Source: a bacterium | GTDB taxonomy: Bacteria; Patescibacteriota; Minisyncoccia; Portnoybacterales; GWB1-42-6 | DNA length: 64,000 nucleotides | Direction of reading: 5' to 3' | Assembly (NCBI GenBank): GCA_043800535.1 | Contig: JAZDMV010000023.1 | Span: 27,264-91,263 of the forward strand | Shown: one piece after another, positions 1-60,175 of the stretch | Numbering within the stretch: the stretch's first letter is position 1 | Layout of the letters: the number at the start of each line of letters is the position of its first letter | Position numbers and translations under genes: made by a program | The notes under the pieces: model-generated | What the model was told of the DNA's origin: nothing | What the model saw: the letters and a program-made list of their open reading frames with translations, nothing else | Database searches by the model: none

Positions 1-2167
1 CGACCCTAAAACTCATAATGGAGCCAACGTTGCCAAACACCGCGTTTTTTATTTTATCGGTCAGCTGGCCGATGAACTGATGCGCAATAGTCAGATCCAA
101 ACGATATTTTCTTGCTTCGGACAAAATTGTCGCTATGCTTTCTGTGGCAAAGTTTTGAAATTCATCAACATAGAGATAAAAATCGCTACGCGCTTCTTCG
201 GCCAAGTCAATGCGCGAAAAAGCGGCCATCAGAAGTTTGCCCACGTTTATCAAACCTAGCAAACTGCTGTTTATATCGCCAAGCCGTCCTTTGCTTAAAT
301 TTACCAATAAGATTTTTTTGCTGTCCATCAGCTGGCGGTAATTTATCGTGCTTTTTGCCTGCCCGATTATCGGCCGCATGTAGTCGTTGGCGATAAAAAC
401 ATTAAATTTGGAAGTGATATAAGGCACGATATTCTGCAAAGCGGCATCCCCGCCCGCCTTCTCCGCTTCTTTTTCCCAAAAATCCCTGACAACCGGATTT
501 TTGCATTTGGAAAGAAGACGCATCCGGAATTCCTTATCCGCTAACACCTTTGGCACTTCCATTAAAGTGGCCTGTGTTGAAGGATCGTCCATCAGAAGCA
601 GGAGCGCGTTTCTTGCGTATTGCTCAAAAATCGGGCCGCCGGTCGTTTTTAAATCATACAGCTTGTCAAAAATATTCATCAACTCATTAATTATGAAAGT
701 TTTTTGTTCAGGATACGCAGGGTCATATTCAAGCATATTGAGCCCAAAAGGCCGTTCAAGGTCCGAAGGATCAAGCAAAACAACATCTTCAGCGCGCTGA
801 GGCGGAATGATTGCCAAAATTTTTTCTATCAGGTCGCCGTGAGGATCAAGCATGGCCACACCTTTCCCAGCCAAAATATCCTGGGCCACAAGATTGTAAA
901 TCAACGTTGATTTACCCGTACCGGTCTGGCCAACGATGTATAGATGCCTGCGCCGATCGTCCTCCTGCAAACGGGCTTCAGTTTCCTGGCCGCGATAGAT
1001 ATTTTTCCCCAGCACCAGTCCTTGCTTTGGAAGATTTATCGGCGCGGCTGCCTGTTTTGCTTTCAAAAATTTAAGCTCGGGAATCGCCAGCGCCACGACA
1101 GGCAAGTGATATATGCTTGTCAGCTCTTCTGTATTCAAAATCATTTTCTGGCCAGGGTCATAGGTTCGGAAAGAAAAATTATAGACAAGACTTTTGAACG
1201 CACGACCTGATGCTCTTACTATTTTTAGGGTGTTAAAATTGGGGTTGTTGAATTGCGCGAAAGCTCCTTCAAGCTGCGCCAAAATCTCTTCTGCTCTAAC
1301 TTGCGTTGCGCCGGAAGCAAGCAGACGGATATTTGTTTCAAATCCTATTTTGCTTGCTTTTTCTTCAAGCGATTTTACCTGTTCCTGCTGAAGCGGAGTC
1401 AAACCAGACACCAGCGCCTGCGGCTGGGACGGATTTTTATTTTCCCCGCCAAAATTCTTCGTAAAGCCTTTCAATGCTGAAGTTTCTTTTAACGCCTGTT
1501 CAAAAGTCCTGTTTTTCTGCATTTCCTGGGCGATTTTTAGCGCCCTCTTCTGCCAATTGCCTGACGCAGGACGAAAAACTATCTGAAGCGCCGCGCCTTC
1601 ATCCTCTTCTTTCAGTTTGCTGAAAGCGTTTACGATTTCGCCGAGCGGATCTGTTTCCAGATTTTTATACGTTTTAAACGGCCAAAAATCGCTCCTCTCC
1701 AAAGTTATGAACGAGCCGGCGGCGGCGCCCTGCGGATTGAAAATATTATAGTCCTTAACCTTTTCAACCTGCGCCTCCGGGAAAAAACCGTGAATCTGTT
1801 TTTCTACGATGCCCTCTATTTGCTTTGAGGCCGCCATATAAAAACAGACTTCTTGACCGATGTGTGGCACCGCCATCTCAAAAACTACGACCGGCTGGCC
1901 GTAGACAAATTTATCCTTATCTTTGCTCTTGAAGCTGGCCAGCGCCGAATAAAGCTGCTCCATAACCGCTATCAACTCCTTATCGCTTTTCCCCTGGCCT
2001 TCCTGTTTTTTGGCGCGCGGCAGAGTAATTAAAAAAAGGCTCATGGAAAGAGCCCGAAAAATGCTGCCTTTGCTTTTAATGGCCGCTATCAGCAACCACA
2101 TTCCCAAAAGCCCTGCGCACAAACCCAGGCCAATGGTCAGAGGGACGAGAATTAGATTGAGATCCAT
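1..2167 (-). CDS. Membrane-anchored P-loop ATPase of the FtsK/HerA/VirB4/VirD4 (AAA_10/TrwB-like) superfamily. The N-terminal TM domain is fused to the ATPase. The gene is partial, and its 3' end lies beyond the window start.
   Basis: Hand translation of the reverse strand gives MDLNLILVPLTIGLGLCAGLLGMWLLIAAIKSKGSIFRALSM, which is an N-terminal TM helix. A Walker A segment RLQEDDRRRHLYIVGQTGTGKS was verified by reverse-complementing 900-962. The protein is a paralog of 44254..46068 (ATPase) plus 46139..47314 (membrane domain). No long ORF is present on the plus strand. Confidence 0.7.
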   Translation of the reverse strand, partial: MDLNLILVPLTIGLGLCAGLLGMWLLIAAIKSKGSIFRALSMSLFLITLPRAKKQEGQGKSDKELIAVMEQLYSALASFKSKDKDKFVYGQPVVVFEMAVPHIGQEVCFYMAASKQIEGIVEKQIHGFFPEAQVEKVKDYNIFNPQGAAAGSFITLERSDFWPFKTYKNLETDPLGEIVNAFSKLKEEDEGAALQIVFRPASGNWQKRALKIAQEMQKNRTFEQALKETSALKGFTKNFGGENKNPSQPQALVSGLTPLQQEQVKSLEEKASKIGFETNIRLLASGATQVRAEEILAQLEGAFAQFNNPNFNTLKIVRASGRAFKSLVYNFSFRTYDPGQKMILNTEELTSIYHLPVVALAIPELKFLKAKQAAAPINLPKQGLVLGKNIYRGQETEARLQEDDRRRHLYIVGQTGTGKSTLIYNLVAQDILAGKGVAMLDPHGDLIEKILAIIPPQRAEDVVLLDPSDLERPFGLNMLEYDPAYPEQKTFIINELMNIFDKLYDLKTTGGPIFEQYARNALLLLMDDPSTQATLMEVPKVLADKEFRMRLLSKCKNPVVRDFWEKEAEKAGGDAALQNIVPYITSKFNVFIANDYMRPIIGQAKSTINYRQLMDSKKILLVNLSKGRLGDINSSLLGLINVGKLLMAAFSRIDLAEEARSDFYLYVDEFQNFATESIATILSEARKYRLDLTIAHQFIGQLTDKIKNAVFGNVGSIMSFRV

Positions 2168-2440
2168 AAATTAAAAAATCCAAATGTCAAAATCCCCGCC
2201 CGCCAAAGCCGATTGGGCAGACAATGGGATATTGATGATAAGTGGCAGACACGGGTATAATTTATTAAAACCGCTCGCTCGCTTTGGCAATCGGCGGGCA
2301 GACAAATTGCTCCAAATCAATGACTAAAGCCCAAAATCCAAAACAAATTTAATTTAGTCATTTGAGCTTTGTCTGGTTATGCCAGATCTCGCGCAGCGAG
2401 AGATCTGATTTGACATTTGAACTTTGGATTTTGGATTTTT

Positions 2441-2833
2441 CTACACTTCTTTTAGTTTCCCCTTTTCCACTAATTGCTGTCTCAATTCGTCAATCAAAGT
2501 ATCATGAAATTTATCTATCAAGTACGCGTCGCTCGTCGCATTAACCGCCTCAACCGCTTTATCTATGCCTTGAGAAAAAGCCAAATCCACCAGCATTTTA
2601 AGCTGGCGGTCTTTTTCGGTCTGTAAAACCTGACTGGCTGGCGCAGCGGCCTGCGCCGGCACTGCGGGTATCGCGGAGGGCGACGGTGTCGGCTTTAGAG
2701 CTTCTTCGGCAGGAGCTGTCTTTGGCATTTCGGCCATCTTCTCCGTTTTTTCCGTCATCTCCGGCTCGGATGGTTTCTCAATCCGCGGCTCAGCCGTTCC
2801 TCCTTCAGTTGGTTCACGATACGGATCTGCCAT
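2441..2833 (-). CDS. Hypothetical small protein of 130 aa with a Pro/Ala/Glu-rich N-terminus.
   Basis: ORF on the same strand as the ATPase, in a run of tightly spaced genes. No recognisable domain. Confidence 0.4.
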   Translation of the reverse strand: MADPYREPTEGGTAEPRIEKPSEPEMTEKTEKMAEMPKTAPAEEALKPTPSPSAIPAVPAQAAAPASQVLQTEKDRQLKMLVDLAFSQGIDKAVEAVNATSDAYLIDKFHDTLIDELRQQLVEKGKLKEV

Positions 2834-2849
2834 ATTTGATATCGATATT

Positions 2850-3164
2850 TTACAAGTTTAAATCTTTTATCCGGTCAAGAACCTCTTTTTTGAATTTAAT
2901 CACCTCTTCCTCTGTTATTTGCTCGATCTCAGGAACTTTAGAAATCAAAAAACGATATATCTCCTGGTCGTTTTCCTTGCCCAAAAGCTTATTAAATTGT
3001 TCTTTGTCTGCCACTGACAAACTTTTAATCACCTGCAGAAGCACCCGCGTCTGTATAAGGTTGCTCATTTTATTTAAAAGCTCAAATTTTCGTTCGTCAG
3101 CCAGGTCCTGCAATCCTAATTCCGTGATTATGTTTTTATTCATCAGATCACTATTTTGTGCCAT
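2850..3164 (-). CDS. Hypothetical small protein of 104 aa.
   Basis: Same strand as the ATPase and separated from its neighbours by 6-16 nt, which is an operon-like arrangement. Confidence 0.4.
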   Translation of the reverse strand: MAQNSDLMNKNIITELGLQDLADERKFELLNKMSNLIQTRVLLQVIKSLSVADKEQFNKLLGKENDQEIYRFLISKVPEIEQITEEEVIKFKKEVLDRIKDLNL

Positions 3165-3170
3165 AGATTT

Positions 3171-3398
3171 TTAGAAATACTTCTCCGGATTAAATATATG
3201 CCTGCTCCTCGATTGCTGGACTATCGTCCGCAAGTCCTCCGGAAGTTCGCTTATTGCCCTATTCTGCTCTGCACCTTTTTCGTCAAGAAATCGTTTAAAG
3301 CGCTCAAATTTATTTTCCGCTGGTTTTTCTTTTTCAACAGATACGTCCCCGCCTAAATCCTGACCCTCCGCCTTCCCAAAAAAACTAAAAAGTCCCAT
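3171..3398 (-). CDS. Hypothetical small protein of 75 aa.
   Basis: First gene of the minus-strand run that ends in the ATPase. Confidence 0.35.
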   Translation of the reverse strand: MGLFSFFGKAEGQDLGGDVSVEKEKPAENKFERFKRFLDEKGAEQNRAISELPEDLRTIVQQSRSRHIFNPEKYF

Positions 3399-3555
3399 AG
3401 TTAGTTCTCCTTTTTTAATAATAAAAAACTATACCTAAAAATTAGCATCCTTACGGCCTTTCCTCTATTCTAGCACAAAAAAATTAAGCAAGTAAGGCGG
3501 CGCTTTCCAGTTATCCACACGACATGCGTTTTTATCCTGTGATATAATATGCTAT

Positions 3556-5226
3556 ATGGATCAACCAACAAAAAAACTCGGATTGACCCTGCTTTTGCTC
3601 ATTTTAGCAATTGCAGTTTTTTTTAGATTCTATAAGCTGGACCAGATCCCGCCCGCCCTTTATCCAGATGTGGCGATTAACGGAACCGACGCGTTAAATG
3701 CCCTGCAAAATGATGATTTCAGAATTTTTTACCCGGCTAACAACGGCCGCGAGGGATTATTTATGAATCTTATAGCGCTCAGCTTTTCTGTTTTTGGCGC
3801 GAGCGTCTGGGCGATAAAGGTCGTAGCGGCGATGTTTGGTACGCTGACGGTGCTAGGCCTTTATTTAATGATCAAAGAAATGTTTAAAAACGGCTCAAAG
3901 AACGGCGAGTATATTGCGTTGCTTTCCGCTTTTTTTATTGCTGTTTCTTTCTGGCACGTCAATTTTTCACGGATCGGCTTCCGCGCTGTTATGGTGCCGT
4001 TTTTCCTCGTCTGGAGTTTATATTTTTTGTTTAAAGCTAGTAACTCGACACCAATACAAGAAATTTCCACGAATGACACGAAAAAAAATCCTCTTATTCC
4101 TTATTTCCTATTTCTTGTTTCTGGTTTATTATTTGGCCTCGGCTTCCATACATACATCGCTTTCCGCGTCGCGCCTCTGGTTTTAGTGCCGATCTTTATT
4201 TTTGACATGATAAAAAACTGGCCGCGGGTTAAGCTGGGCCGCTGGTTTATTTTTGCGTTCGGCATAATTTTGGCCGTCTCGCCACTTGCTTATTATTACT
4301 TAAATAACCCGGCTGACTTTATGGGCCGGGCGGGACAGGTTTCAATTTTTGCCTCTGCCAGCCCCATAAAGGCACTCTTTGACGCGACGCTCAAAACTTT
4401 AGGCCAGTTCGTTTTCCGCGGCGACTATAACTGGCGGCACAATCTTTCGGGCGCGCCGCAGGTGTTCTGGCCGCTCATTCCTTTCTTTTTGCTCGGCCTT
4501 GCTTATTCACTTATTCAAATATTCAAAAAACAAAATTATATTCAAAGATCCTGGGCTTTGCTTTCCTGCCACTGGTCACTCGTTTTTCTCTGGGGAACGA
4601 TGCTTTTACCCTCAATTCTGACCAACGAAGGCCTGCCTCATGCCCTGCGTTCTATCGGCGCAATTCCCGCCACCTTTATTTTTGTGGGTGTGGGCGTTTA
4701 TTTGGCCATTGATTATCTAAATTCAAAACTATTAAAATACGAACATCTTCTTTTTGCTTATAAATACGCGGCCGCCGGGCTGTTTGTCTTGCTTTTGATT
4801 AGCATTGCCGGCTTTTCTTATTACCAGTATTTTATCTACTGGGGCGAGCATCCAGAAACCGAAGGCGCTTTCACTAAAAAATTTGTTGACGAGGCCTTAT
4901 ATCTTAAATCCCTGCCTTCCGCTGTAAAAAAATATGTGGTGGTCAATGAAAACGGCACGGCTGTGCCATATCCTGACGGCATTCCCATGCCTGCCCAGAC
5001 CATAATGTTCCTTACACAAACAAGCCAACCGCCTGTCCAGGTACAGTATATTAAACACAATCAACTGGCGGATTTGGCGCAAATATCTGATCTTAGCTCG
5101 CCCGTCGTTATATTGCCCATGAAATACGACCAAGAAATCTTCCGGCAGCTCTGGAATATGTTTCCGTATTCGCAAACAGAAATAATGGAAGCCAGCGGCT
5201 TCGCTGTTCTAAAAATCAATTTCTAA
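3556..5226 (+). CDS. Polytopic membrane glycosyltransferase of the ArnT/PMT family (GT83/GT39-like).
   Basis: There are 12 or more hydrophobic segments. The N-terminal region YPDVAINGTDALN...NGREGLFMNLIA is typical of ArnT-like undecaprenyl/dolichyl-phosphate-sugar transferases. Confidence 0.65.
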   Translation: MDQPTKKLGLTLLLLILAIAVFFRFYKLDQIPPALYPDVAINGTDALNALQNDDFRIFYPANNGREGLFMNLIALSFSVFGASVWAIKVVAAMFGTLTVLGLYLMIKEMFKNGSKNGEYIALLSAFFIAVSFWHVNFSRIGFRAVMVPFFLVWSLYFLFKASNSTPIQEISTNDTKKNPLIPYFLFLVSGLLFGLGFHTYIAFRVAPLVLVPIFIFDMIKNWPRVKLGRWFIFAFGIILAVSPLAYYYLNNPADFMGRAGQVSIFASASPIKALFDATLKTLGQFVFRGDYNWRHNLSGAPQVFWPLIPFFLLGLAYSLIQIFKKQNYIQRSWALLSCHWSLVFLWGTMLLPSILTNEGLPHALRSIGAIPATFIFVGVGVYLAIDYLNSKLLKYEHLLFAYKYAAAGLFVLLLISIAGFSYYQYFIYWGEHPETEGAFTKKFVDEALYLKSLPSAVKKYVVVNENGTAVPYPDGIPMPAQTIMFLTQTSQPPVQVQYIKHNQLADLAQISDLSSPVVILPMKYDQEIFRQLWNMFPYSQTEIMEASGFAVLKINF

Positions 5227-16489: not shown

Positions 16490-17542
16490 CTATCTTGGCG
16501 GCTCCTGATATTGCGTTGTCACCAGAACATTTTTAACAGCGTCTATGTCTTCCAGAACCACTCCACAACCCCGCACAACTGCCGTTAACGGATCTTCCGT
16601 TATCTTAACCGGCATTTGCGTTTCCTGCGCCACAAGCTTATCCAGGCCACGCAATAAACTCCCGCCTCCAGCAAGAATAATTCCTCGCTCCATGATGTCG
16701 GCCACCACCTCCGGCGGCGCTTCTTCTATGGTTGAGCGGACAGCATTAACTATTGTTTTCACGGAACGCTTCATTGCTTCGCGAATATCATCAGAATCAG
16801 CGATTACTTCTTTGGGCAGGCCGGAGACAAGATCGCGGCCGCGAAGTGATGCTTCCATTTTATCTTCCAGAGGGAAAGCCGAACCAATAGCGATCTTAAC
16901 ATCTTCGGCGGTTTTCTCTCCAAGAAGCAATTTAAATTCGTCACGCGCATATTGTATGATATCTTCGTTTAGCTTGTCGCCCGCAATGCGCAAGCTTTTG
17001 CAGACCACTATCCCGCCAAGCGAAATGATCGCAACCTCGGTTGTCCCGCCGCCAATATCAACTATCATATTGCCGGCTGCTTCCTGCACGGGCAGGCGCG
17101 AGCCGATTGCCGCGGCCATCGGCTCTTCTATCAAATAAACTTCGCTTGCGCCGGCATTGCGTGTCGCGTCTTCAACCGCCCTTTTTTCAACCTCTGTAAC
17201 TCCCGAAGGCACGCCGATAACGACTCTTGGCCGTGAAAAAAATCTAAAGCCGGGCTTGCAAACCTGGCCTATAAAATATCTCAGCATTTGCTCCGTTATC
17301 TCAAAATCGGAAATTACGCCTTCAACCAGCGGCCGTGAAGCAACGATATGCCCGGGCGTTCTGCCGACCATTCTTTTGGCTTCTTGGCCTATTGCCAAAA
17401 TCTGGCCAGTCTTATTATTGACCGCCACCACCGACGGTTCATTAATAACAATACCCCGGCCTTTGACGTAAACCAGAGTATTGGCGGTTCCCAAATCAAT
17501 CCCGATGTCTTTTGAGAATTGACCGAGCAGTTTCGCAAACAT
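16490..17542 (-). CDS. mreB: Rod shape-determining protein MreB (actin homolog).
   Basis: DIGIDLGTANTLVYV...GGGTTEVAIISLGG are canonical MreB motifs. Confidence 0.9.
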   Translation of the reverse strand: MFAKLLGQFSKDIGIDLGTANTLVYVKGRGIVINEPSVVAVNNKTGQILAIGQEAKRMVGRTPGHIVASRPLVEGVISDFEITEQMLRYFIGQVCKPGFRFFSRPRVVIGVPSGVTEVEKRAVEDATRNAGASEVYLIEEPMAAAIGSRLPVQEAAGNMIVDIGGGTTEVAIISLGGIVVCKSLRIAGDKLNEDIIQYARDEFKLLLGEKTAEDVKIAIGSAFPLEDKMEASLRGRDLVSGLPKEVIADSDDIREAMKRSVKTIVNAVRSTIEEAPPEVVADIMERGIILAGGGSLLRGLDKLVAQETQMPVKITEDPLTAVVRGCGVVLEDIDAVKNVLVTTQYQEPPR

Positions 17543-24926: not shown

Positions 24927-25940
24927 TTATTTTTTACTCATCACACTTCTCTTATACACATCAAGATGGTCTAGCGCAATGCCTGCGCCTTTGGCCACGC
25001 ACAGAAGCGGGTCTTCGGCCACAAAACAGGGCACGCCCGTCGCCTGCGTGATAAGCTCGTCAAGGTTGCGCAGGAGCGCCCCGCCGCCCGATAAAATCAT
25101 ACCTTTGTCCATCACGTCAGCCGAAAGTTCTGGCGGCGTATCGTGCAAAACAATTTTTACCGTCTGCACTATCTCCCGCAGACTGTCCGCAATCGCATCG
25201 GTAATTTCGTTGGTCTTGACCGTTATATTCTTTGGCAGACCGCTTATTAGATCACGGCCTCTTGTTTCAAAACTCAGCTCGTTTTTCTGCGGCAAGGCGC
25301 TGCCCACCGCAATTTTTATTTCTTCGGCTGTCCGTTCGCCCACTGCCAGATTATATTTTTTACGCAAAAATTCGGCAATCGCCTGGTCAAGCTTATTTCC
25401 GCCTATTCTGACCGAAGCCCAGGCAACGATTCCGCCAAGCGAAATCACGGCTACTTCAGAAGTGCCTCCGCCAACATCAATTATCATATGGCCAACCGGC
25501 TCGTTAATGGGAATGCCTGCACCAATTGCGGCCAGCACCGGCTCTTTAACGATATAGGCGGCCTTGGCTCCTGCATTTAAAGTCGCGTCAACCACGGCAC
25601 GCCTCTCTGTTGAAGTAATGCCGGCCGGCACAGCTACCATCACATCCGGCCTAAAAATTCTTACAGAACCCGTGGTCTTGTTGATAAAATAACGCAGCAT
25701 TGCCTCGGTCACCCGATAGTCGGCAATTACTCCGTCTCTCATGGGCCTGGAAGCCACAATCGTGTCGGGCGTCCGGCCAAGCATCTCCCGCGCTTCGTTG
25801 CCAACAGCCAAAATCCGGTTATCGTCCAACGATACCGCCACGACCGTCGGCTCGTTTATGACAAGCCCCTTGCCCGGTACATAAACCAGGGTGTTGGCCG
25901 TGCCAAGGTCAATGCCGATTTTTTTGATGAAAAACGCCAT
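24927..25940 (-). CDS. MreB-like actin homolog (second paralog).
   Basis: IGIDLGTANTLVYV...DVGGGTSEVAVISLGG. It is distinct from the mreB at 16490..17542. Confidence 0.85.
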   Translation of the reverse strand: MAFFIKKIGIDLGTANTLVYVPGKGLVINEPTVVAVSLDDNRILAVGNEAREMLGRTPDTIVASRPMRDGVIADYRVTEAMLRYFINKTTGSVRIFRPDVMVAVPAGITSTERRAVVDATLNAGAKAAYIVKEPVLAAIGAGIPINEPVGHMIIDVGGGTSEVAVISLGGIVAWASVRIGGNKLDQAIAEFLRKKYNLAVGERTAEEIKIAVGSALPQKNELSFETRGRDLISGLPKNITVKTNEITDAIADSLREIVQTVKIVLHDTPPELSADVMDKGMILSGGGALLRNLDELITQATGVPCFVAEDPLLCVAKGAGIALDHLDVYKRSVMSKK

Positions 25941-28443: not shown

Positions 28444-29085
28444 CTATTTCTCAAAAACAAAGTGGCCAATTATGCCGATGACCTTAGGCAACTGGGGTTT
28501 CGATATGGATGTGGAAATCCGTAACACTGAAAATCCATCTTCCAGCTGGTGCATAGGCCATGACGACCCGATAACATGCCTTTCCCGGCAATCGCGCATA
28601 AAGCTTACCCACTCGTCCGCCGTCATAACATTAATTCCGTAATAATGATATGATCGGCCTGATTCCAGCAAAAATCCTTTTCGCTGCCCAAGCCAGTCAA
28701 GCGCTCTTATCGCTTCGGTTAGCCCCTCCTCACAGCAAGGACACTGGAAATCGATCATTGGAATATGCCTGATTTTTTCGTCATCCATCCTTACAAGAGA
28801 AACCAATCCCATATTTTCGCGTTTCCTTTTTCGGCACAGCTTTGCCGTCGCCTCAAATGATTCTCCCAGTTCATCCTCCCCGATCCTGAACATCCGCACT
28901 CTTCTGTCGTAATTCCGCTCTGGATCATCATACGCTTCCATTCGCGGCAGTCGCCTGCCTGTTCGGTAAAAGATCAGCTCAAACTTTGCCACGCCATTAA
29001 AGCGAAGGATGAAACCGATAACCTGCTCCAGCGAAACATCATCAATTCTTTTGAAGCTTATTGCCCTTGGATCCAACGCCACCAC
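28444..29085 (-). CDS. Hypothetical protein of 213 aa with a CPCC motif.
   Basis: ORF with a GTG/TTG start region preceded by AAGGAGG. No recognised domain. Confidence 0.4.
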   Translation of the reverse strand: MVALDPRAISFKRIDDVSLEQVIGFILRFNGVAKFELIFYRTGRRLPRMEAYDDPERNYDRRVRMFRIGEDELGESFEATAKLCRKRKRENMGLVSLVRMDDEKIRHIPMIDFQCPCCEEGLTEAIRALDWLGQRKGFLLESGRSYHYYGINVMTADEWVSFMRDCRERHVIGSSWPMHQLEDGFSVLRISTSISKPQLPKVIGIIGHFVFEK

Positions 29086-35868: not shown

Positions 35869-37128
35869 TTATGTCTGCATGAGCCGGATCGCCCTTTTCA
35901 ACATCGGCGCAAAAATGCCTTCATCGCCCAAAAGCTGGACCGATAAGCTGGCCAGCGCCAGAGGCGTCACGTCTTTTGGCTCCTTCAACTTTCCTGTTTT
36001 ATCTTCTATGCCTACAACCTGAGCCGGATCAATAAAATTAACTTCCGGCACCTGTAAAAGCGGCAAATCTTTTGCCCAGTCACCCGATTCCAGAGCTTTT
36101 TTTATTCCCGGCAAACTGCTGCCGCCGCCGCAAAGCAGAATTTTTGAAGGCAACGGGCTTAATTTGGAAAATTCGCTTAAGGCCAGACCCACCCCGCCGA
36201 GCCACACCTTTATGTCCTGTTTAAAAATATCAGAAATTTTTTTCTTAACGCCGCTCGAAATTTCTCCACGGCTATATTTTAGCTTTATCTGCTCGCCTTC
36301 TGTAAAATTAACCGCCAGATTATCACAAAGACGCTTGGTAAAAGCACGGCCGCCCAGAGCAAATGATTTTATTCCTTCAAGTCCGCCCTGGCGCAGAAGT
36401 GCGATATCCGTTGTGCCACCGCCGATATCAATAAAAATCACGTCGTTTTGATTTTCAATATCAATGCCTCTGGCAATCGCATATGGTTCGGCAGCTACAA
36501 AAAGCAGATCGAGATTCAAGGTCTTAGCAATAGAATTTATCGCGCCAAGATGGAGAAGCGGGGCGTAGGCATTAAAAATGCTGAGCGTTATCTCCTTGCC
36601 CTGAAAACCCAAAGGATTTGTCACCTGATATCCGTCAATTTTTACTTCAACGATTGTCGCGTTTATCATTTTTACCTCAATTTCGGAAATTCCGCTTTCC
36701 TCGGCCAGTTCCTGACGAATTTTATTGAACGCCTTCCATTGTATTTTCTGGATAATATTTTTGAGCTCCGGCATTTCTATCTTTTCCTTCGGCTCTTCCC
36801 GTTCGCAGGCAAAACTAAAAGTCGCTCCTTTGACAAATTCTCCGGCAATACCAATTATCGCCTGGCTGACTTTGGTTTTGGCCTCGGCCTCAACCGCCAA
36901 AATCGCTTTTTTACATGTGTCGGCCACGCCTTCTATGTCAGTCACCGCACCAGCTATCATATGCGCGATTTTTTGCGGCTCCAAAACCGCCCCCACGATC
37001 TGGCCGGCTCTTTTTTTCTCGTCTACTTTAACAATGAGTGCTTTTACAAATTCGGTGCCGATATCCAAAACCAAAACGCAATCGCCTTTTATTTTCCTTT
37101 TTCCGAAAATCTTATCAAAAATGCTCAT
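35869..37128 (-). CDS. Actin-like ATPase of the FtsA/PilM family (ASKHA fold).
   Basis: VLVLDIGTEFVKALIV...VIFIDIGGGTTDIALL phosphate-binding motifs. Length is 419 aa. Confidence 0.6.
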   Translation of the reverse strand: MSIFDKIFGKRKIKGDCVLVLDIGTEFVKALIVKVDEKKRAGQIVGAVLEPQKIAHMIAGAVTDIEGVADTCKKAILAVEAEAKTKVSQAIIGIAGEFVKGATFSFACEREEPKEKIEMPELKNIIQKIQWKAFNKIRQELAEESGISEIEVKMINATIVEVKIDGYQVTNPLGFQGKEITLSIFNAYAPLLHLGAINSIAKTLNLDLLFVAAEPYAIARGIDIENQNDVIFIDIGGGTTDIALLRQGGLEGIKSFALGGRAFTKRLCDNLAVNFTEGEQIKLKYSRGEISSGVKKKISDIFKQDIKVWLGGVGLALSEFSKLSPLPSKILLCGGGSSLPGIKKALESGDWAKDLPLLQVPEVNFIDPAQVVGIEDKTGKLKEPKDVTPLALASLSVQLLGDEGIFAPMLKRAIRLMQT

Positions 37129-40449: not shown

Positions 40450-41802
40450 TTACTGAATTACTCCTCCACCCAATAGTTCACCTTTTTTGCTATAGAACAC
40501 CGCGCTCTGTCCCGGCGTCACCGCCCGCTGGGGCTTGCCGAAAATTACACGCACAGTGTCATTGCGAGCCCCGACGTGAAATCGGGGCGTGGCAATCCTG
40601 TAAATAACAGCCGGACTAGCTTCGCTCTTATATCTTATTTTTATCAAAACTTCCTGCGGCAATTTTGCCTGCCCTCCGTAGCCTTGCCTGCCCGCAGTAG
40701 CTTTAGCGAAGGAGGGGCGGAGGCGGGGCGCTTGCCTGCTTGTCCAATTTATATTGCCCGCCGCCAGTTCTTTGCTATACAGATCTTTTTCATCGTTGCT
40801 GACATATAAAATATTTTTGCGCGTGTCTTTTTTAACCACCCACCACGGCCCCTGGTTCAATGGAATATTTTTACGCTGCCCGATGGTATAAAACGCTAGA
40901 CCCTGATGTTCACCCAAAATTTTACCATCTTTCAATTTGTCATTCCCGCGAAAGCGGGAATCCAGACTGGATACCGGATCAAGTCCGGCATGACACGAAT
41001 TATAATCTACTATTTTTCCTAGCTTCATTTTTATATATTTTTTCAAAAAGCTTTCAATATCGCGCGCCACAAAACAAAGATCAAAGCTCTCGCCCCGCCT
41101 GAAAGACAGTCTCCATTTTTTTGCTAATTTATACACTTCCTCTTTCGTATAGTCGGCCAAAGGAAATAATACGCGACTCAATTGCCTCTGTGTCAACGCA
41201 TACAAAAAATATGACTGATCCTTATCTTTATCCTTGGCCTTAAAAATTGTATACGTGTCATTGCGAGGAGCCCCGCACCGTGCGGGGCGACACGGCAATC
41301 CCAAAATGATATCGCCAACGGCTGTTTGCCTCGGGATTGCTTCGCCCCGACTTACATCGGGGCTCGCAATGACGCTACTTTGTATTTTCGCATAATGCCC
41401 GGTGGCAATATAATCAGCCCCCATGCCGAGCGCTTTTTTGAATAAAAGCCCAAACTTAATTTTTTTATTGCACACAACGCACGGATTTGGCGTTCGCCCG
41501 GCGTCGCTCTCGCGCAAAAAATGATCAACTACTTCTTTTTTAAATTCTTTCCCCAGGCGCAGGATATAAAAAGGGATGTCTAGTTTTGAAGCCACGTCTC
41601 TAGCCGCCTGCTCTGCACCCGCGCTACAGCAAGTATTTGTAGCCGCAAAGCGTGCATTCGGCTCTGCCCAGAAACGCATAAAAACGCCAACGACATCATA
41701 TCCTTGCTTTTTTAATAACGCCGCTGCCACAGAAGAATCAACCCCACCAGACATTGCAACTATTACTTTTCCCTTTGATTTGCGCATATTCTCTTCTATC
41801 AT
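40450..41802 (-). CDS. mnmA: tRNA-specific 2-thiouridylase MnmA carrying four in-frame palindromic-element insertions.
   Basis: VIVAMSGGVDSSVAA PP-loop...GADYIATGHYA...KDQSYFLY...AVTPGQSAVFY. It is about 83 aa longer than E. coli MnmA. The ORF-track start at 41970 is probably too far upstream, and the ATG at 41802 (MIEENMRKSKGKV) follows a terminator. Confidence 0.75.
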   Translation of the reverse strand: MIEENMRKSKGKVIVAMSGGVDSSVAAALLKKQGYDVVGVFMRFWAEPNARFAATNTCCSAGAEQAARDVASKLDIPFYILRLGKEFKKEVVDHFLRESDAGRTPNPCVVCNKKIKFGLLFKKALGMGADYIATGHYAKIQSSVIASPDVSRGEAIPRQTAVGDIILGLPCRPARCGAPRNDTYTIFKAKDKDKDQSYFLYALTQRQLSRVLFPLADYTKEEVYKLAKKWRLSFRRGESFDLCFVARDIESFLKKYIKMKLGKIVDYNSCHAGLDPVSSLDSRFRGNDKLKDGKILGEHQGLAFYTIGQRKNIPLNQGPWWVVKKDTRKNILYVSNDEKDLYSKELAAGNINWTSRQAPRLRPSFAKATAGRQGYGGQAKLPQEVLIKIRYKSEASPAVIYRIATPRFHVGARNDTVRVIFGKPQRAVTPGQSAVFYSKKGELLGGGVIQ

Positions 41803-41843
41803 TTTATTTTTTAGAATAACATCATTTTTGCCAAAAAGAAAAG

Positions 41844-41870
41844 CCCCGGATGAACATTGTTCATCCGGGG
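41844..41870 (-). terminator. Intrinsic terminator after the MYG1-like gene.
   Basis: Perfect 13-bp inverted repeat CCCCGGATGAACA-t-TGTTCATCCGGGG, followed on the minus strand by CTTTTCTTTTTGG. Confidence 0.6.
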
Positions 41871-41884
41871 CCACAAAAAGGGTA

Positions 41885-42979
41885 CTAAGCGGCTTTCTTA
41901 TGATAAAGATTGAACCGCTTATCCCTGCACTTTCTGAGCCCCCAGACATACTTTTCGCACCACCGCCCATTGCACTTTACCTCCTTGCATGGATCAACTA
42001 AGGGTGCACAAGCCAAAGCAATTGCCCCAGCCACTTCCATAAAAGAGAGGGCTGTTGGTTCCTTATCGGGCGCCGAGAAGCTCCCATTAAGAAGCTGACT
42101 CTTGTCCTTTTTGGAATAATACCAAAAATGGCATTTATCGCAATCCTCGGCCACCTCCATCTCCTGCCAGTCTGGCAGAATAATCTTACGTTTTACCAGC
42201 TCCTGCATCCGTACAATCCTTACCACATCAATAAAATTAATTTTCCGCTGAAAATCTGGCGTGGTGAAGATTGCCGTATTGCCAGTGGTGCGCCGCTGAA
42301 TTATAATATCAACCATGTCGCCAAATCTCCAACGGATCCATTTGTTCATCTTACGGCTATCTGATTCAACAACCGCGATTCCAACCGGACCTTTGATAAT
42401 CCGGCCTTTTTCACGAAATTCGTCTTCGCATTTAAAAAAGCGAATTTGGCCGCGCAGATGACGACGAATCCCATCCACCGCCCAATCAAACGCTGCTGGT
42501 AATTCCTTGTCACTCTCGCAATCATCCCAACCATCATTTAAAAGCGAGTGGATATCAAATGGCATACTTCGGCCTTCATCATCCACCCTTTTGCAAAATT
42601 GCAGGATCTTCTGCAGCTCTGGTTTGTGAGAAATCTGTAAAATTTCCGCCGCCAGATGCGCGCAGGAGGAAATACCTTTTCCGTGCTCGTCTAAAATTCC
42701 TCCCCCGATACCGATCGGGAGAATTTTGTCCTTTAATAAGATCTCGTCACCGCTCTTGCCTTTTGCATCCTCTGGCACGCGGCCTTCCGTCCAAAATTCC
42801 ATCCTTGCCTTTTCAACGCCAGGGAAGATTCCTCTGCCCCACGTCACACATTCTACGTATGCCAGAACCTCATCAAAATGCGGCATATTGTGAGTTGCAA
42901 TTTTCTTGACTGGCCACGGGCCAACACCTCCTAACCGCTTCTGCCACCATTTCAACTCTGTGCTCGCCATTGTCGCCAT
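41885..42979 (-). CDS. MYG1/UPF0160-family metal-dependent hydrolase with a Cys-rich C-terminal tail.
   Basis: IATHNMPHFDEVLAYV resembles the MYG1 N-terminal HxxxHxDE motif. The C-terminus is CDKCHFW...CAPLVDPCKEVKCNGRWCEKY. Confidence 0.5.
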   Translation of the reverse strand: MATMASTELKWWQKRLGGVGPWPVKKIATHNMPHFDEVLAYVECVTWGRGIFPGVEKARMEFWTEGRVPEDAKGKSGDEILLKDKILPIGIGGGILDEHGKGISSCAHLAAEILQISHKPELQKILQFCKRVDDEGRSMPFDIHSLLNDGWDDCESDKELPAAFDWAVDGIRRHLRGQIRFFKCEDEFREKGRIIKGPVGIAVVESDSRKMNKWIRWRFGDMVDIIIQRRTTGNTAIFTTPDFQRKINFIDVVRIVRMQELVKRKIILPDWQEMEVAEDCDKCHFWYYSKKDKSQLLNGSFSAPDKEPTALSFMEVAGAIALACAPLVDPCKEVKCNGRWCEKYVWGLRKCRDKRFNLYHKKAA

Positions 42980-43162: not shown

Positions 43163-43735
43163 ATGTTAAATTACAACGACCTGCGCCCCGGCACTTTTTT
43201 TATTTTGGACGGCCAGCCCTATGAGGTGCTGGAGTTCAGTTTCCTGCGTATGCAGCAAAGAAAACCGGTTGCCCAGACAAAAATAAAGAATCTTATTTCC
43301 GGCAAGATCATCAGCCGTAATTTTCAGCCCAACGAAACTTTTGAAGCCGCCGACATCAACTATAAAGATGTCAAATTTTTATATGCCCATCGCGGCAAAT
43401 TTGTGTTTTCCGAAACCAAAGACCCGTCAAAAAGATTTGAATTGGAAGAACAGCAAATTGGCCAGCTGCACAAGTTTTTAAAACAAAACAGTGAAGTAGA
43501 AATGATAGAATTTGAAGGAAAAATCATTAATACAGCACTCCCGATAAAAATGGAATTTAAGGTGATTGAGGCGCCACCGGGCATAAAAGGCGACACCGCG
43601 CAGGGAGGCGTCAAAGCCGTTAAAATAGAAACGGGCGCTATGATTAACACTCCTTTCTTCATTGAAGAAGGCGACGTCATCCGGATCAACACACAGACCG
43701 GAGATTATACAGAACGGGTAGAAAAGTCAAAATAG
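43163..43735 (+). CDS. efp: Elongation factor P.
   Basis: Three-domain EF-P, 190 aa (…FILDGQPYEVLEF…PGIKGDTAQGGVK…). The loop at the E. coli K34 position reads RMQQRKP rather than KPGKG. Confidence 0.85.
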   Translation: MLNYNDLRPGTFFILDGQPYEVLEFSFLRMQQRKPVAQTKIKNLISGKIISRNFQPNETFEAADINYKDVKFLYAHRGKFVFSETKDPSKRFELEEQQIGQLHKFLKQNSEVEMIEFEGKIINTALPIKMEFKVIEAPPGIKGDTAQGGVKAVKIETGAMINTPFFIEEGDVIRINTQTGDYTERVEKSK

Positions 43736-46138: not shown

Positions 46139-47314
46139 CTACACCGTCGGCAAACTTATCGGCGGCTCGCCTTTTTTGGTCGCCAGCCACGGCGTCATCG
46201 GCGCCTTAATAGATGAGGAAGGAAAGTGATACAAGCTAGCCAACTCTTCAATGTTTAAAGTGAACCCCTTATCCCAGAATGTCCTTTGGCGCAAGAATCT
46301 TATCAGCTTTCTCTGTTTATAAATTTTTCTCTGTTTGGCAAAAAGATAATTAGCTTTGGTCATATTTTTCGCGTCCGGCAAAATGGTGTTTCCATTCAAA
46401 GCCGCAAACTGGTTAAAAAATCCCATGCTAGCGCTAACATTTGCCATTGACATAATTTCGCGCCTTGCCACATAAGCGAACTGGACTTTTGTTTCGTAGG
46501 CCTTTTTTGTGGCTTTCATTTCAACCAGCCCAATACTCTCTCTCTGTCCGGGAGAAAGCATCGGAAAAGGAACAGTGACACCTTCCGGCGCGGCAGGCGC
46601 AGGTCTTGCCTGTTCCATCAATTTTACAGCAAATTTTTTTGCTTCTTCGGCCCATTTGTCCGGTTGCGGCCTGATGAAAAACTGAATCCATATTTGTTCG
46701 CCTTGCCTAAGTTTGCTCATTACTTCCATAAGCCCGCCCAAAGGGTCTATAAATTGCGAGATGCCCTTGGAAGAAATGACATCAAGCTGCATCATGTAGG
46801 TTCGCAAAGGATAAGCATCCGGCTGGGCCAGTTTCATTTTTGTCGCCCAAAAATCCCAATTTTTATTAGGGATATCGGCCGGAATATTTTTTACATAATC
46901 TTCAACTTCCTTAACTTCTGTCTGTGGGTAATGACTCCAAATATGCGATTCTATCAGATTCCTGAACTTTGCGGGCGCCCTGACAAAAAAATGAATGCCC
47001 CCGTCAATCCCGACAATTTCAAACACAAAGTAATCCTGGATGAATCCTTTTACATATTTTTGATATTTTGTCGCGATAGTGCCAAAAATCCCCCAAAATC
47101 CCGCAAAAACCTGCTCCATAATTTTTGGACTCTGCTCCATGTCGCGGGGTGGCTTAATTTCAAGCAGAACCCACTGGATTCCCTGCCAGTAAACACGCCT
47201 GATATAATACATCCAGGTATCAAAAAAGGCTATGGCCAAAACAACCGGCAGCCATAGCCACCAAACATCCAAAAGGTAATTAAATATCACTTTTGAAAGC
47301 TCGAAAGGTGTCAT
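46139..47314 (-). CDS. Membrane-anchored protein, homologous to the N-terminal domain of the fused ATPase at 1..2167.
   Basis: A single N-terminal TM (LLDVWWLWLPVVLAIAFF) is followed by EIKPPRDMEQSPKIMEQVFAGFWGIF. The fused gene has the matching segment ITLPRAKK...IAVMEQLYSALASF. Confidence 0.6.
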   Translation of the reverse strand: MTPFELSKVIFNYLLDVWWLWLPVVLAIAFFDTWMYYIRRVYWQGIQWVLLEIKPPRDMEQSPKIMEQVFAGFWGIFGTIATKYQKYVKGFIQDYFVFEIVGIDGGIHFFVRAPAKFRNLIESHIWSHYPQTEVKEVEDYVKNIPADIPNKNWDFWATKMKLAQPDAYPLRTYMMQLDVISSKGISQFIDPLGGLMEVMSKLRQGEQIWIQFFIRPQPDKWAEEAKKFAVKLMEQARPAPAAPEGVTVPFPMLSPGQRESIGLVEMKATKKAYETKVQFAYVARREIMSMANVSASMGFFNQFAALNGNTILPDAKNMTKANYLFAKQRKIYKQRKLIRFLRQRTFWDKGFTLNIEELASLYHFPSSSIKAPMTPWLATKKGEPPISLPTV

Positions 47315-47359: not shown

Positions 47360-48424
47360 TTATACTAGCGCGTAACGGCCGTCCTCCAATTTTTTGAAGG
47401 CCTTTTTGTTCTGCAAATTTATAAGGATGGTATTTTCTTTTATCTGGCGCTTGGCCAAAACATTCTTTACAACCTCTCCTTTGGCCATCGGCCCTTTCTC
47501 TTTGATTATATCACGGATAACATCAACAACGGTACCGGGCGCATATCCCCATTCGGCCAAAGCATAAATCCCGCGGCCGATAAGAACAAACCGCGGGTCT
47601 TTTATGAGCTCGTTGTGAACCGTCTGCACATAAGCCGGCTTATTCTGCGGCAATTGTTCATTGATCTGATTGGTAACTTCTGAAAAATGAAACGGCTGGC
47701 CGGCTTTTTTGAATACTAAATAGGCCTTGTCGCGCACGCCACGCGGAGAAATTTCCGGCCAGACAACCAATCCGAATTCGCCAAAACGATTTTGGTCTAT
47801 GATCTTGGAAGCATCAATATAAGAAAAAGTCGCCTTGTCAGAAATATTCGGCAACTTGCTTTTAACAACTCTATAAAGCTCCTCGTCTTTTAAAACCTTG
47901 GGATTCTTATCAAAATATCTGACAGCCGAGTCCACTGCCCGTTCCGCCTTTTGAATGGCACTGCTGTTAACCGCCCAGAATGTATGAAATTCATCAGTTT
48001 CAGGATAACGGCTAAACCGCTCTCCCAGGGTCAAAACAAGATTAAGTGCCGCTTTGCACAAGCTAAGTTCTGCTTCGGCTTTTTTCTGTAATTCAGCTAT
48101 CTGACTCGCAGGAAAACAATAACAGACCAAGTCGTCAAACGCCCTGTCTTCACGCCGCAACTCGCCGTACTGCTTAAAATAATCGTGAATTTCATCTTCA
48201 AGAGGCCGTACCTTTTCGCGCACGCCCGGCTGCAATAAATAATCAAGGCCGTTCTTCTCGATCTGCCGCACTCTCTCTCTTGTTATGTTATACTGGTCCC
48301 CGATTTCCTGAAGCGTTTGCGGAGTTCCGTTTTCAAGACCAAAACGCCGCCTGACCACATCCTGTGTCCGGCGGTTGTCTATTCCGCTAATAAGTTCTGA
48401 TATCAAATAATAAGGATTTTCCAT
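47360..48424 (-). CDS. Sigma-70 region-4-like HTH domain fused to a ~280-aa domain of unknown function. It is the first gene of the ATPase operon.
   Basis: RRTQDVVRRRFGLENGTPQTLQEIGDQYNITRERVRQIEKNGLDYL matches the sigma-70 r4 / LuxR-like HTH pattern. The upstream sequence has TTGACA-17-TATCTT. Confidence 0.55.
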   Translation of the reverse strand: MENPYYLISELISGIDNRRTQDVVRRRFGLENGTPQTLQEIGDQYNITRERVRQIEKNGLDYLLQPGVREKVRPLEDEIHDYFKQYGELRREDRAFDDLVCYCFPASQIAELQKKAEAELSLCKAALNLVLTLGERFSRYPETDEFHTFWAVNSSAIQKAERAVDSAVRYFDKNPKVLKDEELYRVVKSKLPNISDKATFSYIDASKIIDQNRFGEFGLVVWPEISPRGVRDKAYLVFKKAGQPFHFSEVTNQINEQLPQNKPAYVQTVHNELIKDPRFVLIGRGIYALAEWGYAPGTVVDVIRDIIKEKGPMAKGEVVKNVLAKRQIKENTILINLQNKKAFKKLEDGRYALV

Positions 48425-58932: not shown

Positions 58933-58987
58933 GATTCTCCAAACGCACATAAACTTCCGTGCTCCCGAGCACGGAAGTTTATGTCTA

Positions 58988-60079: not shown

Positions 60080-60085
60080 AGTTGT

Positions 60086-60168: not shown

Positions 60169-60175
60169 TTAAATT

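Follow-up and report, generated by a model that had tools for sequence, protein, structure and literature searches.

Canonical coupling proteins (T4CPs) carry about two TM helices right before the motor domain. A different arrangement has been described for pIP501, in which the T4CP TraJ is accompanied by TraI, a small, separately encoded membrane protein with two predicted TM domains that has been proposed as its anchor (PMC12857230). For Patescibacteria, the accessible text of a survey by Quinonero-Coronel et al. 2025 (PMC12102498) counts 5,713 T4CP homologues in 2,918 of 3,035 genomes, or about two per genome, of which only 148 lie near virB4; only 109 relaxases are counted, and the function of the homologues is suggested to be exapted. 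Here, we analyzed two genes of this kind, Locus A and Locus B, in a 64-kb stretch of DNA (the window) from a Patescibacteria genome most closely related to Portnoybacteria (Table 1). They are almost certainly the same genes as those counted in the survey, and the presence of two copies, neither near virB4, fits that account. In Pfam, the family is already catalogued as DUF8128 plus DUF87. Our main reading, to which we assign a probability of roughly 55%, is that Locus A belongs to the T4CP family (VirD4/TraG/TrwB) as a "domesticated" member that resides on the chromosome and is passed on vertically.

Table 1. Features of Locus A, its upstream region and Locus B (window positions)
Feature	Position	Strand	Assignment or basis
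Locus A gene, 5' 722 of 869 codons	2..2167	-	T4CP-family ATPase; 3' end past window
N-terminal TM helix, aa 3-32	2072..2161	-	Kyte-Doolittle; helix 3-32 in AF2 model
DUF8128 domain, aa 41-352	1112..2047	-	cytoplasmic alpha/beta, VirB4 N-terminal-domain fold
N-domain end and linker, aa 344-383	1019..1138	-	motif ILNTEELTSIYHLP...P...P..LP
Motor domain, aa 384-722 in window	2..1018	-	VirB4/VirD4-type P-loop
Walker A GQTGTGKS, aa 413-420	908-931	-	motif reading
Walker B FYLYVDE, aa 663-669	161-181	-	motif reading
Spacer, 273 bp, 130-aa ORF to ATPase start	2168..2440		coordinates
130-aa ORF	2441..2833	-	upstream partner of fused ATPase
104-aa ORF, DUF5663	2850..3164	-	Pfam PF18908, 8.1e-8
75-aa ORF	3171..3398	-	ORF listing
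Locus B gene 2, T4CP-type ATPase, 604 aa	44254..46068	-	Pfam, motifs
Locus B gene 1, TM + DUF8128, 391 aa	46139..47314	-	tblastn; TM segment ~aa 9-32
Locus B upstream partner, 354 aa, sigma-70 region 4 + HARE-HTH	47360..48424	-	Pfam; PDB sigma region 4 matches

The translated Locus A reading frame, which runs to the window edge, matches the 869-aa NCBI MAG protein P0001 at 100%, so that the full protein sequence could be recovered and the window misses its final 147 aa. From the N terminus onward, the protein consists of a single TM helix, the DUF8128 domain, a RecA-like motor of the VirB4/VirD4 type that carries a helical insert, and finally a disordered tail. The helix and the Walker A sequence noted in the preliminary description of this DNA are both real. 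Kyte–Doolittle means over 19-residue segments of the helix reach 2.29, and Lys31 and Lys33 come after it; because the ATPase has to be cytoplasmic, we infer an N-out/C-in topology. The "TM domain" that had been described as fused to the ATPase had to be redrawn: the fusion stands, but the membrane part is a single helix, and the region of about 350 aa behind it is soluble and cytoplasmic. This anchor, one helix with a large additional domain behind it, is atypical for a T4CP and sets Locus A apart from TrwB/VirD4/TraD (PDB 1e9r), as does its lack of a relaxase or T4SS context. An AF2 model gave the same succession of single TM helix, VirB4-N-fold domain, and motor with helical insert, with uncertain interdomain geometry (pTM 0.58).

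The initial assignment of the ATPase to the VirB4/VirD4/HerA superfamily of translocation motors is supported by Pfam, NCBIfam, and PDB comparisons. Two Pfam models pass their gathering cut-offs on Locus A, namely DUF87 (2.8e-8) and T4SS-DNA_transf (6.5e-5; 22.4 bits, cut-off 20.1), and two others fall just under theirs (TrwB_AAD_bind, 19.3 versus 20.5; TraG-D_C, 16.6 versus 22). The latter two are above cut-off in the Locus B ATPase, with scores of 44.0 and 25.0, respectively. NCBIfam returned partial matches of Locus A to TraD, CD1115 VirD4-like, and CedD proteins, and the best PDB sequence match was TrwB. The helical insert (aa 487–601 in the AF2 model) lies where T4CPs have their all-alpha domain and may correspond to it; 354 of the 420 TrwB residues align, and VirB4 C-domains carry a helical insert at the same site. 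The Walker motifs are intact in both paralogues. Judged by sequence, the motors of Locus A and Locus B belong to the T4CP branch.

The DUF8128 domain of Locus A, a cytoplasmic region of approximately 310 aa, has the fold of the VirB4 N-terminal domain by structure comparison. PF26449 (DUF8128) is assigned, as a precomputed annotation, to P0001 and to all fused homologues listed, and a profile made from split-type members aligns to Locus A aa 41–385. Searched against PDB sequences, a DUF8128 profile gave chance matches only (E > 0.7), so that the link to the VirB4 N-domain is a structural one. E347, E348, L349, H354, P356, P363, and P376, at the domain end and in the linker, are invariant in 42 sequences of the fused and split types. 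The ILNTEELTSIYHLP motif found here is shared with T4CPs from plasmids and phages. Past this motif, the Locus A model is disordered (pLDDT <50 at aa 361–375), and the break between the two genes of Locus B falls at this domain end and linker (aa 344–383). By analogy with the VirB4 N-domain, DUF8128 would probably act in membrane docking and protomer pairing. The name "DUF8128" was absent from the literature searched.

The Locus A protein is homologous over its full length to T4CPs encoded by plasmids of Bacillus and of actinomycetes and by Bacillus phages. These include an 885-aa "DUF87 domain-containing protein" of B. subtilis plasmid NZ_CP154917, an 812-aa T4CP of Embleya plasmid NZ_CP108778, and the phage proteins SPO1 gp27.4 and phage G gp156. 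The similarity covers the N-domain plus the motor (phmmer 2e-65 to 5e-24) at an identity of only 20–31%; phrog_5156 matches across Locus A aa 65–809 (1.4e-80), and the mobile-element relatives comprise 39 phage and 192 plasmid records. Locus A and the mobile T4CPs have in common the LNxEEL..HxP sequence at the N-domain end, Walker B, and an RKYR sequence. The Embleya T4CP has an N-terminal TM helix, as in Locus A, whereas the Bacillus plasmid and phage proteins have none. Every plasmid or phage relative examined has N-domain and motor fused in one protein. The setting differs: the mobile genes lie in T4SS- or plasmid-type modules (Replic_Relax, VirB4, VirB3, or ParM/Alp7A), with Replic_Relax adjoining the homologue in SPO1 and in the B. 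subtilis and Embleya plasmids, whereas Locus A has housekeeping neighbors and none of these genes.

The shared N-domain fold invites comparison with VirB4/TrwK (PDB 7o42, 4ag5), and Locus A could be read as a very divergent VirB4, that is, an assembly or pilus-biogenesis ATPase in which the TM helix replaces a fused VirB3. We consider this very unlikely. The VirB4 models CagE_TrbE_VirB and AAA_10 gave no match to Locus A (E ≤ 0.1) or to the Locus B ATPase (E ≤ 0.01), whereas T4CP models pass their cut-offs, and virB3, virB6, and virB8 are all absent from beside Locus A. In addition, a true VirB4 of the AAA_10 type is encoded alongside, and separately from, the homologue on the B. subtilis plasmid (AAA_10 match at 7.7e-116), on the Embleya plasmid, and in phage G, and the homologue occupies the T4CP position beside the nickase. 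A DUF8128 profile built from Patescibacteria sequences only matched the N-domains of the mobile T4CPs (5.8e-23 to 5.6e-9) but not the VirB4s of those same elements.

A second, split copy, already proposed from the sequence, is present at Locus B: Locus A aa 391–722 are 46.5% identical to the product of its ATPase gene, and aa 68–380 are 25.8% identical to that of its DUF8128 gene. The Locus B ATPase has no TM segment and ends in a CxxC-x17-CxxC zinc finger (Pfam: TrwB_AAD_bind, 1.9e-11; TraG-D_C; zf_Tbcl_2, 3.1e-11); the membrane helix that Locus A has at its own N terminus is here on the separate DUF8128 protein. Likened by description only, this pairing of a soluble ATPase with a separately encoded membrane protein has a precedent in TraJ and TraI, the Locus B partner being 391 aa long and TraI small. 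Split paralogues are a feature of the Patescibacteria family that sets it apart from the mobile T4CPs. Given the end-to-end homology of the fused protein to the latter, the fused form is probably ancestral and Locus B the product of a fission.

Among 80 Patescibacteria species, a stand-alone DUF8128 gene was followed by the ATPase gene in 58 of 71 loci (median gap, 24 bp), and a sigma-region-4 plus HARE-HTH gene lay directly upstream of the split DUF8128 gene in 68 of 76. We considered whether this upstream protein is a disguised Replic_Relax and rejected the idea, as a 77-sequence profile scored at most 1.8 bits against three Replic_Relax proteins. The surrounding synteny (SecDF / sigma4-HARE-HTH / DUF8128 / ATPase / EF-P / MnmA) is conserved; where genomes are small and stable, a shared gene order can be inherited history and not a sign of function. 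DUF8128 occurs in at least 592 species-level genomes from many Patescibacteria lineages, and stand-alone homologues include 718 with PF26449 and form 4030 clusters at 50% identity. Patescibacteria retain two old paralogues, one fused and accompanied by the 130-aa protein discussed later, the other split and set in an operon-like triad with the sigma4/HARE-HTH gene. The proposal that N-terminal part and ATPase belong together is borne out by their fusion in Locus A and the mobile relatives and by the adjacency of the split genes.

A membrane-tethered motor of the FtsK–HerA superfamily that is near-universal in the phylum might also be an FtsK-like segregation or division translocase, with the DNA-binding sigma4/HARE-HTH partner of the B type standing in for the FtsK gamma domain in trans. 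The genes for FtsQ, Ddl, PBP2, and MreBCD near Locus A would suit such a role. An FtsK_SpoIIIE match together with closest structural likeness to the FtsK motor was not found for the Locus A protein, and we regard this reading as scarcely probable.

Upstream of Locus A, three small ORFs had been described as forming one tight minus-strand run, and an operon, with the ATPase gene. The run is tight among the small ORFs themselves, with gaps of 6 and 16 bp, but the ATPase gene lies 273 bp away, and the three differ in how well they track the fused gene. The 130-aa ORF is the consistent partner, being the immediate upstream neighbor in every fused-type locus with sequence (the window, L001, L003, L088, L089, and L094). 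In its product, an N-terminal DPYREP motif is joined by a linker rich in Pro, Ala, and Glu to a conserved C-terminal helical module of about 55 aa; no Pfam domain was found in any of 33 homologues. The 104-aa ORF is patchy (present in L001, L087, and L094, absent from L003, L088, and L089) and, contrary to the view that the small ORFs have no recognizable domains, encodes a DUF5663 protein; that view holds for the other two. The 75-aa ORF shares 77% amino acid identity with an ORF in the corresponding place in L094, the closest relative, and had no match in the other loci examined or in any family library; it is probably a real gene of very narrow distribution. None of the three has a counterpart at Locus B. 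The spacer before the ATPase gene carries a 107-bp insertion (2196–2302) that is missing from L094 and has no further copy within the window. Promoter and terminator scans of positions 1900–3700 showed no excess over shuffled sequences, and an Rfam scan of positions 1–4000, spacer included, gave no match.

The observation that conjugation, T4SS, and pilus genes are absent nearby extends to the whole 64-kb window, and genes for a relaxase, Replic_Relax, VirB4, or VirB6 were found neither in the window nor in the listed flanks of the fused- and split-type loci. The neighbors of Locus A encode small soluble proteins and PMT_2 glycosyltransferases; downstream of the fused gene, its relatives have GtrA and DnaX. 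These housekeeping flanks, a G+C content that is uniform over the window, synteny kept over many lineages, and the intactness of both paralogues make it highly improbable that Locus A is left over from an integrated conjugative element or a prophage, even though the closest non-Patescibacteria relatives sit on plasmids and phages. The same estimate applies to a HerA-type anti-phage ATPase. PADLOC did return mad8 (3.7e-14) and HerA (5.6e-7), but both matches are partial and confined to the ATPase region, on which ground a defence role was rejected; PADLOC matched no partner effector gene, and the window holds no integrase or defence partner gene.

A more substantial alternative is that Locus A encodes the coupling protein, acting in trans, of the chromosomal Patescibacteria T4SS (VirB4, VirB3, VirB6, VirB8, and VirB2-like pilins), which such genomes encode outside this region. 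It would recruit protein effectors or DNA, pass them on to the T4SS channel, and dock through its N-domain on the same VirB3/VirB8 platform. A VirB4-like N-domain is plausible as a docking module, and a homologue lies beside a VirB4-type T4SS in every mobile-element relative examined. According to the accessible text of two studies (PMC12102498, PMC10633639), T4CP genes often lie at a distance from virB4, and no coupling protein is encoded within the T4SS cluster of Patescibacteria itself. Against this, the survey in its accessible text reports VirB4 in only 2,417 genomes, compared with the 2,918 that have T4CP homologues, and reports that in Southlakia the t4cp homologue is not essential whereas the T4SS genes are (PMC12102498). 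Moreover, there are two paralogues, each paired with its own non-T4SS partner, and T4SS genes are absent from the window. We therefore consider coupling to a T4SS, with docking on VirB3/VirB8, possible but unlikely.

As a domesticated T4CP, the Locus A protein would probably assemble, like its relatives, into a membrane-tethered hexamer that draws on ATP to drive a substrate to, or through, a channel in the membrane. Because housekeeping genes surround both loci and the window contains neither relaxase nor T4SS genes, the motor has probably been turned to a use other than plasmid conjugation. Family membership and the DNA-binding neighbors of the B type suggest DNA or nucleoprotein as the most likely substrate, the HTH partner and the zinc finger of that type being a hint of DNA. 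Counting against a DNA substrate, no DNA-binding partner accompanies Locus A, and proteins are also among the cargoes that T4CPs can deliver. More tentatively, and with considerable doubt, the two paralogues might constitute a translocation system that spans the phylum, works independently of a T4SS, and derives from conjugation T4CPs, and in which the VirB4-like N-domain mediates self-assembly and the sigma4/HARE-HTH and 130-aa proteins act as cargo adaptors.

A large part of bacterial diversity belongs to the Patescibacteria, which are host-dependent and are thought to exchange material with their hosts via envelope machines. Locus A and Locus B are a real, conserved variant of a known family. 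To the T4CP homologues of the survey, whose accessible text contains no account of the N-domain, of a fused/split pair, or of partner genes (PMC12102498), the present analysis adds an anatomy (TM helix, VirB4-type N-domain, and motor), an origin from T4CPs of Replic_Relax-type monoderm plasmids and phages, a fused/split pair showing that N-domain and motor act together, and two candidate partners, the DNA-binding sigma4/HARE-HTH protein and the 130-aa protein. The VirB4-like N-domain in a T4CP subfamily bears on the kinship of the two T4SS ATPases, and its retention by T4CPs would provide direct evidence, at the level of structure, that T4CPs descend from a VirB4-like ancestor. If the phylum-wide system exists, it could move DNA or nucleoprotein into or out of host-dependent Patescibacteria cells. 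With the features added here, the role of the T4CP homologues becomes testable in the few culturable, genetically tractable members of the phylum.

The preliminary description had reported a membrane-anchored ATPase gene at the edge of the window (Locus A) and a second copy in which the two parts are encoded separately (Locus B), and both hold (see the table). The Locus A translation is a 100% match to an 869-residue protein (P0001; NCBI title "MAG: DUF87 domain-containing protein [bacterium]") on a 191,907-bp contig, so that the final 147 residues of the Locus A protein lie beyond the window. The protein has a single membrane tether, its sole hydrophobic helix (residues 3-32), with Lys31 and Lys33 at the end of this helix. 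The Walker A (GQTGTGKS, residues 413-420), Walker B (FYLYVDE, residues 663-669), and AHQxxxQ motifs are all intact. The two Locus B genes encode paralogues of the ATPase half (46.5% identity) and of the N-terminal half (25.8% identity).

Features of the loci discussed and of neighboring genes in the window
Feature	Position	Strand	Remarks
Locus A ORF, fused	2-2167	-	ATG at 2167, in-frame stop one codon before; 722 codons to window edge
Small ORFs of 130, 104, and 75 aa	upstream of ATPase	-	gaps of 16 and 6 bp
Spacer	2168-2440		273 bp
Insertion in spacer	2196-2302		107 bp
Palindrome, 12 bp	2383-2407		past stop codon of 130-aa ORF
Locus B ATPase	44254-46068		604 aa
Locus B TM+DUF8128 protein	46139-47314		391 aa
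Sigma-70 region 4/HARE-HTH protein	47360-48424	-	~350 aa; homologues in loci L004-L086 of other genomes
MreB paralogues (two) and FtsA/PilM-like protein	16490-17542, 24927-25940, 35869-37128	-	within 21 kb
Primase-like protein	28444-29085	-	213 aa
MnmA as listed	40450-41970	-	506 aa
Cys-rich ORF	41885-42979	-	364 aa
EF-P	43163-43735	+
Polyamine-type row	58003-61549	-	first two ORFs overlap by 44 nt

In Pfam, DUF87 and T4SS-DNA_transf exceed their gathering cut-offs for Locus A, and Locus B matches TrwB_AAD_bind (1.9e-11) and TraG-D_C and carries a CxxC-x17-CxxC treble-clef zinc finger. The NCBIfam models TraD, a VirD4-like family, and CedD matched in part, and the top PDB match by sequence was TrwB. 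Sequence models thereby group the motor with the type IV coupling proteins (T4CPs; VirD4/TraG/TrwB), and fold alone puts it in the VirB4/VirD4 clade; in the full-length AF2 model (mean pLDDT 81.6), residues 487-601 form a helical insert and the tail is disordered. A divergent VirB4 is a lesser alternative, the VirB4 models CagE_TrbE_VirB and AAA_10 giving no match to the Locus A protein. An FtsK-like segregation motor is likewise a lesser candidate, and the FtsK_SpoIIIE score stayed under its cut-off. The Locus A gene is a member of a known superfamily branch and of a gene set that has been counted previously, and the core of the preliminary reading was right.

Residues ~40-385 of P0001 are assigned to PF26449 (DUF8128) in precomputed annotation, a name for which no mention was found in the literature searched. 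A confident AF2 model of this N-domain (mean pLDDT 80.5, pTM 0.76), computed from 42 sequences of the two types, shows repeated α/β units after the TM helix, and the modeled domain is of the VirB4 type. This likeness is limited to structure, the DUF8128 profile having matched none of the PDB sequences. The N-domains of VirB4 proteins are involved in protomer pairing, membrane embedding, and contacts with VirB3 and VirB8 (2025 review, PMC12857230).

Relatives outside the phylum were found in mobile elements. The PHROGs family phrog_5156, its function listed as unknown, aligns with residues 65-809 of P0001 (1.4e-80) and with the split N-domain protein (1.2e-13). Full-length relatives detected by tblastn comprise 39 phage records, including SPO1-like Bacillus phages and phage G, and 192 plasmid records (88 Bacillus, 26 Streptomyces, 9 Sulfolobus, haloarchaea, and others). 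A DUF8128 profile built from Patescibacteria sequences only matches the N-domains of the SPO1, phage G, Bacillus subtilis, and Embleya homologues (5.8e-23 to 5.6e-9) and none of the VirB4s adjoining the plasmid and phage homologues.

The SPO1 homologue, gp27.4 (906 aa, without a TM helix), lies downstream of an Alp7A-like actin (gp27.9) and a small hydrophobic protein (gp27.5), and overlaps the Replic_Relax gene gp27.3, annotated "replication initiation by nicking". Directly upstream of the phage G homologue lies the gene for an AAA_10/P-loop_TraG (VirB4-like) protein. A 27.5-kb B. subtilis plasmid has the order ParM, homologue, Replic_Relax, "conjugal transfer" proteins, and a clear VirB4 (AAA_10, 7.7e-116); an Embleya plasmid has PrgI (VirB3 family), a VirB4-like ATPase, the homologue, Replic_Relax, and an NlpC/P60 hydrolase. 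The Embleya homologue has its own TM helix and matches T4SS-DNA_transf, TrwB_AAD_bind, and TraG-D_C. Locus A shares N-domain and motor with these proteins; the Replic_Relax neighbor seen in SPO1 and both plasmids has no counterpart in the window. These homologues and their contexts indicate that the fused layout is the usual one in a T4CP subfamily carried by mobile elements of monoderms; most simply, Locus A retains this layout and Locus B arose by subsequent fission.

Separately, the large Bacillus phages carry a plasmid-like module (SPO1, 92636-97329; phage G, gp155-gp156) of Alp7A-type actin, small membrane proteins, a DUF8128-type T4CP-like ATPase, and a Replic_Relax nickase, to which phage G adds the VirB4-like ATPase adjoining the T4CP-like one. 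What the module does for the phages seems not to have been annotated.

Stand-alone TM+DUF8128 proteins (390-450 aa) are common, with 718 matches in a word-indexed search and 4030 clusters at 50% identity in an exhaustive one. A scan of one genome per species gave at least 592 DUF8128 loci, and record titles include Portnoy-, Morani-, Lipton-, Terry-, Niyogi-, Kerfeld-, Magasanik-, Uhr-, Nealson-, Kaiser-, Wolfe-, and Buchananbacteria, among others. Neighborhoods were counted in the best 80 loci. Of 71 with enough sequence, 58 have a T4CP-type ATPase directly after the split DUF8128 gene (median gap 24 bp), and a homologue of the 354-residue sigma-70-region-4/HARE-HTH protein directly precedes this gene in 68 of 76 loci, often with gaps of 1-50 bp. 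SecF lies upstream in 39/57 loci, and EF-P and MnmA are frequently found downstream. The sigma-70 region 4 is N-terminal in this protein and the HARE-HTH lies near the C-terminus; the motif TVHNELI.D..FVLVGRG.Y.L..WGY is strongly conserved, and no similarity to Replic_Relax was found.

The split point of the Locus B type is a disordered linker just past a conserved LNxEEL..HxP motif. A neighbor-joining tree places the N-domains of the fused type in one clade and those of the split type in another, which implies that the two types are old paralogues, each with a stable architecture. Whether fused or encoded by adjacent genes, the N-domain and the motor are linked. Both types occur within 8 kb of each other in Patescibacteria bacterium UBA2196. 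In this genome (locus L069, 1-2052 and 7896-11273), the fused-type gene is only ~6 kb from the split-type DUF8128 gene, with SecDF between them, and the ATPase of the triad ends ~9 kb from the fused-type gene.

The small ORFs upstream of Locus A had been described as forming a tight run with the ATPase and as lacking recognizable domains. Close spacing applies among the small ORFs themselves, but 273 bp precede the ATPase start, and the 104-residue product is a DUF5663 protein. The 130-residue protein belongs to a narrow family (33 detectable homologues); it begins with DPYREP and has a conserved helical module at the C-terminus, with a variable linker rich in Pro, Ala, and Glu in between. In each of the six fused-type loci with upstream sequence, its gene immediately precedes the fused one, and ATPase identity among these loci is as low as ~58%. 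The DUF5663 gene is found in only part of the fused-type loci, and the 75-aa ORF is conserved (77% amino acid identity) only in the closest relative, L094. No counterparts of the three ORFs were found at Locus B.

Searches of the spacer for terminator, promoter, and Rfam signals gave none above background. The L094 spacer is 148 bp (1606-1753); relative to it, the window carries the 107-bp insertion, and the sequences flanking the insertion are 84% and 94% identical at the nucleotide level. The insertion contains TGTCTGCC three times, its ends pair (CTGCCCGCCGATTGCC...GGCTTTGGCGGGCGG) in a long stem predicted at -34.4 kcal/mol, and it has no repeat elsewhere in the window. Motifs of the CCAAAATCC / GGATTTTGG type recur in the spacer in direct and inverted orientation and are retained in L094. 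These motifs and the palindrome may be regulatory sites.

Locus A is part of the core chromosome. The remaining genes examined in the 64-kb window are all housekeeping, including PMT_2 glycosyltransferases, FtsQ-like, Ddl, SerRS, a class II aminoacyl-tRNA synthetase, PBP2, MreB/C/D, ribosomal proteins, RpoA, AlaRS, SecA, SecD, SecF, EF-P, MnmA, MurA, and MurB. No relaxase, VirB4, VirB6, pilin, or integrase genes were found within the window, G+C is even (0.41-0.49), and the nearest P0001 homologues are in MAGs of Portnoybacteria, Parcubacteria, and other Patescibacteria. A mobile-element remnant or defense ATPase is a lesser explanation, and it is contradicted both by PADLOC matches that are weak and partial and by the conserved synteny with housekeeping genes.

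Several neighboring genes deserve mention in their own right. The gene for a protein with an archaeo-eukaryotic-primase-like domain (PF24387, 2.6e-22) has that of a PEGA-domain protein on one side and that of ribosomal protein S9 on the other. A row encoding an arginase-family protein, a deoxyhypusine synthase homologue, and an Orn/Arg decarboxylase looks like a bacterial polyamine and deoxyhypusine-type cluster, with EF-P encoded apart from it. The Cys-rich ORF, without family match, overlaps the listed MnmA start by 86 nt; given the 363-residue length of MnmA in a relative (L004) and a Pfam match from residue 68, the true MnmA start is probably further downstream. Both MreB paralogues are full length and are accompanied by a third actin-fold protein, in a genome that is small.

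According to the available text of a survey by Quinonero-Coronel et al. 2025 (PMC12102498), 2,918 of 3,035 Patescibacteria genomes contain VirD4-type T4CP homologues (5,713 in total), only 148 of them near virB4; VirB4 occurs in 2,417 genomes, and the relaxases number only 109. The window follows the same pattern of roughly two T4CP homologues in each genome, at a distance from virB4. The same text reports that the Southlakia t4cp homologue is non-essential and the T4SS genes essential, and it leaves exaptation of T4CP homologues as a possibility. The Southlakia T4SS has no recognizable coupling protein or relaxase (Wang et al. 2023, PMC10633639). The main rival explanation is that the Locus A protein still serves the chromosomal Patescibacteria T4SS in trans, which we consider less likely. 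We favor, at a probability of roughly 0.55, a membrane-tethered hexameric ATP-driven motor, whose N-domain would provide membrane docking and protomer pairing and whose function would have moved away from plasmid conjugation. Its substrate would be DNA or nucleoprotein, as suggested by the nickases with which its relatives work and by the zinc finger and HTH partner of the split type.

In the available text of PMC12102498 and PMC10633639, we came across no account of how the N-domain folds, of the pairing of fused and split types, of the sigma-70-region-4/HARE-HTH triad, or of the 130-residue partner. The Locus A gene represents an uncharacterized variant that occurs throughout the phylum; its N-domain is unusual, and its partners are newly defined.
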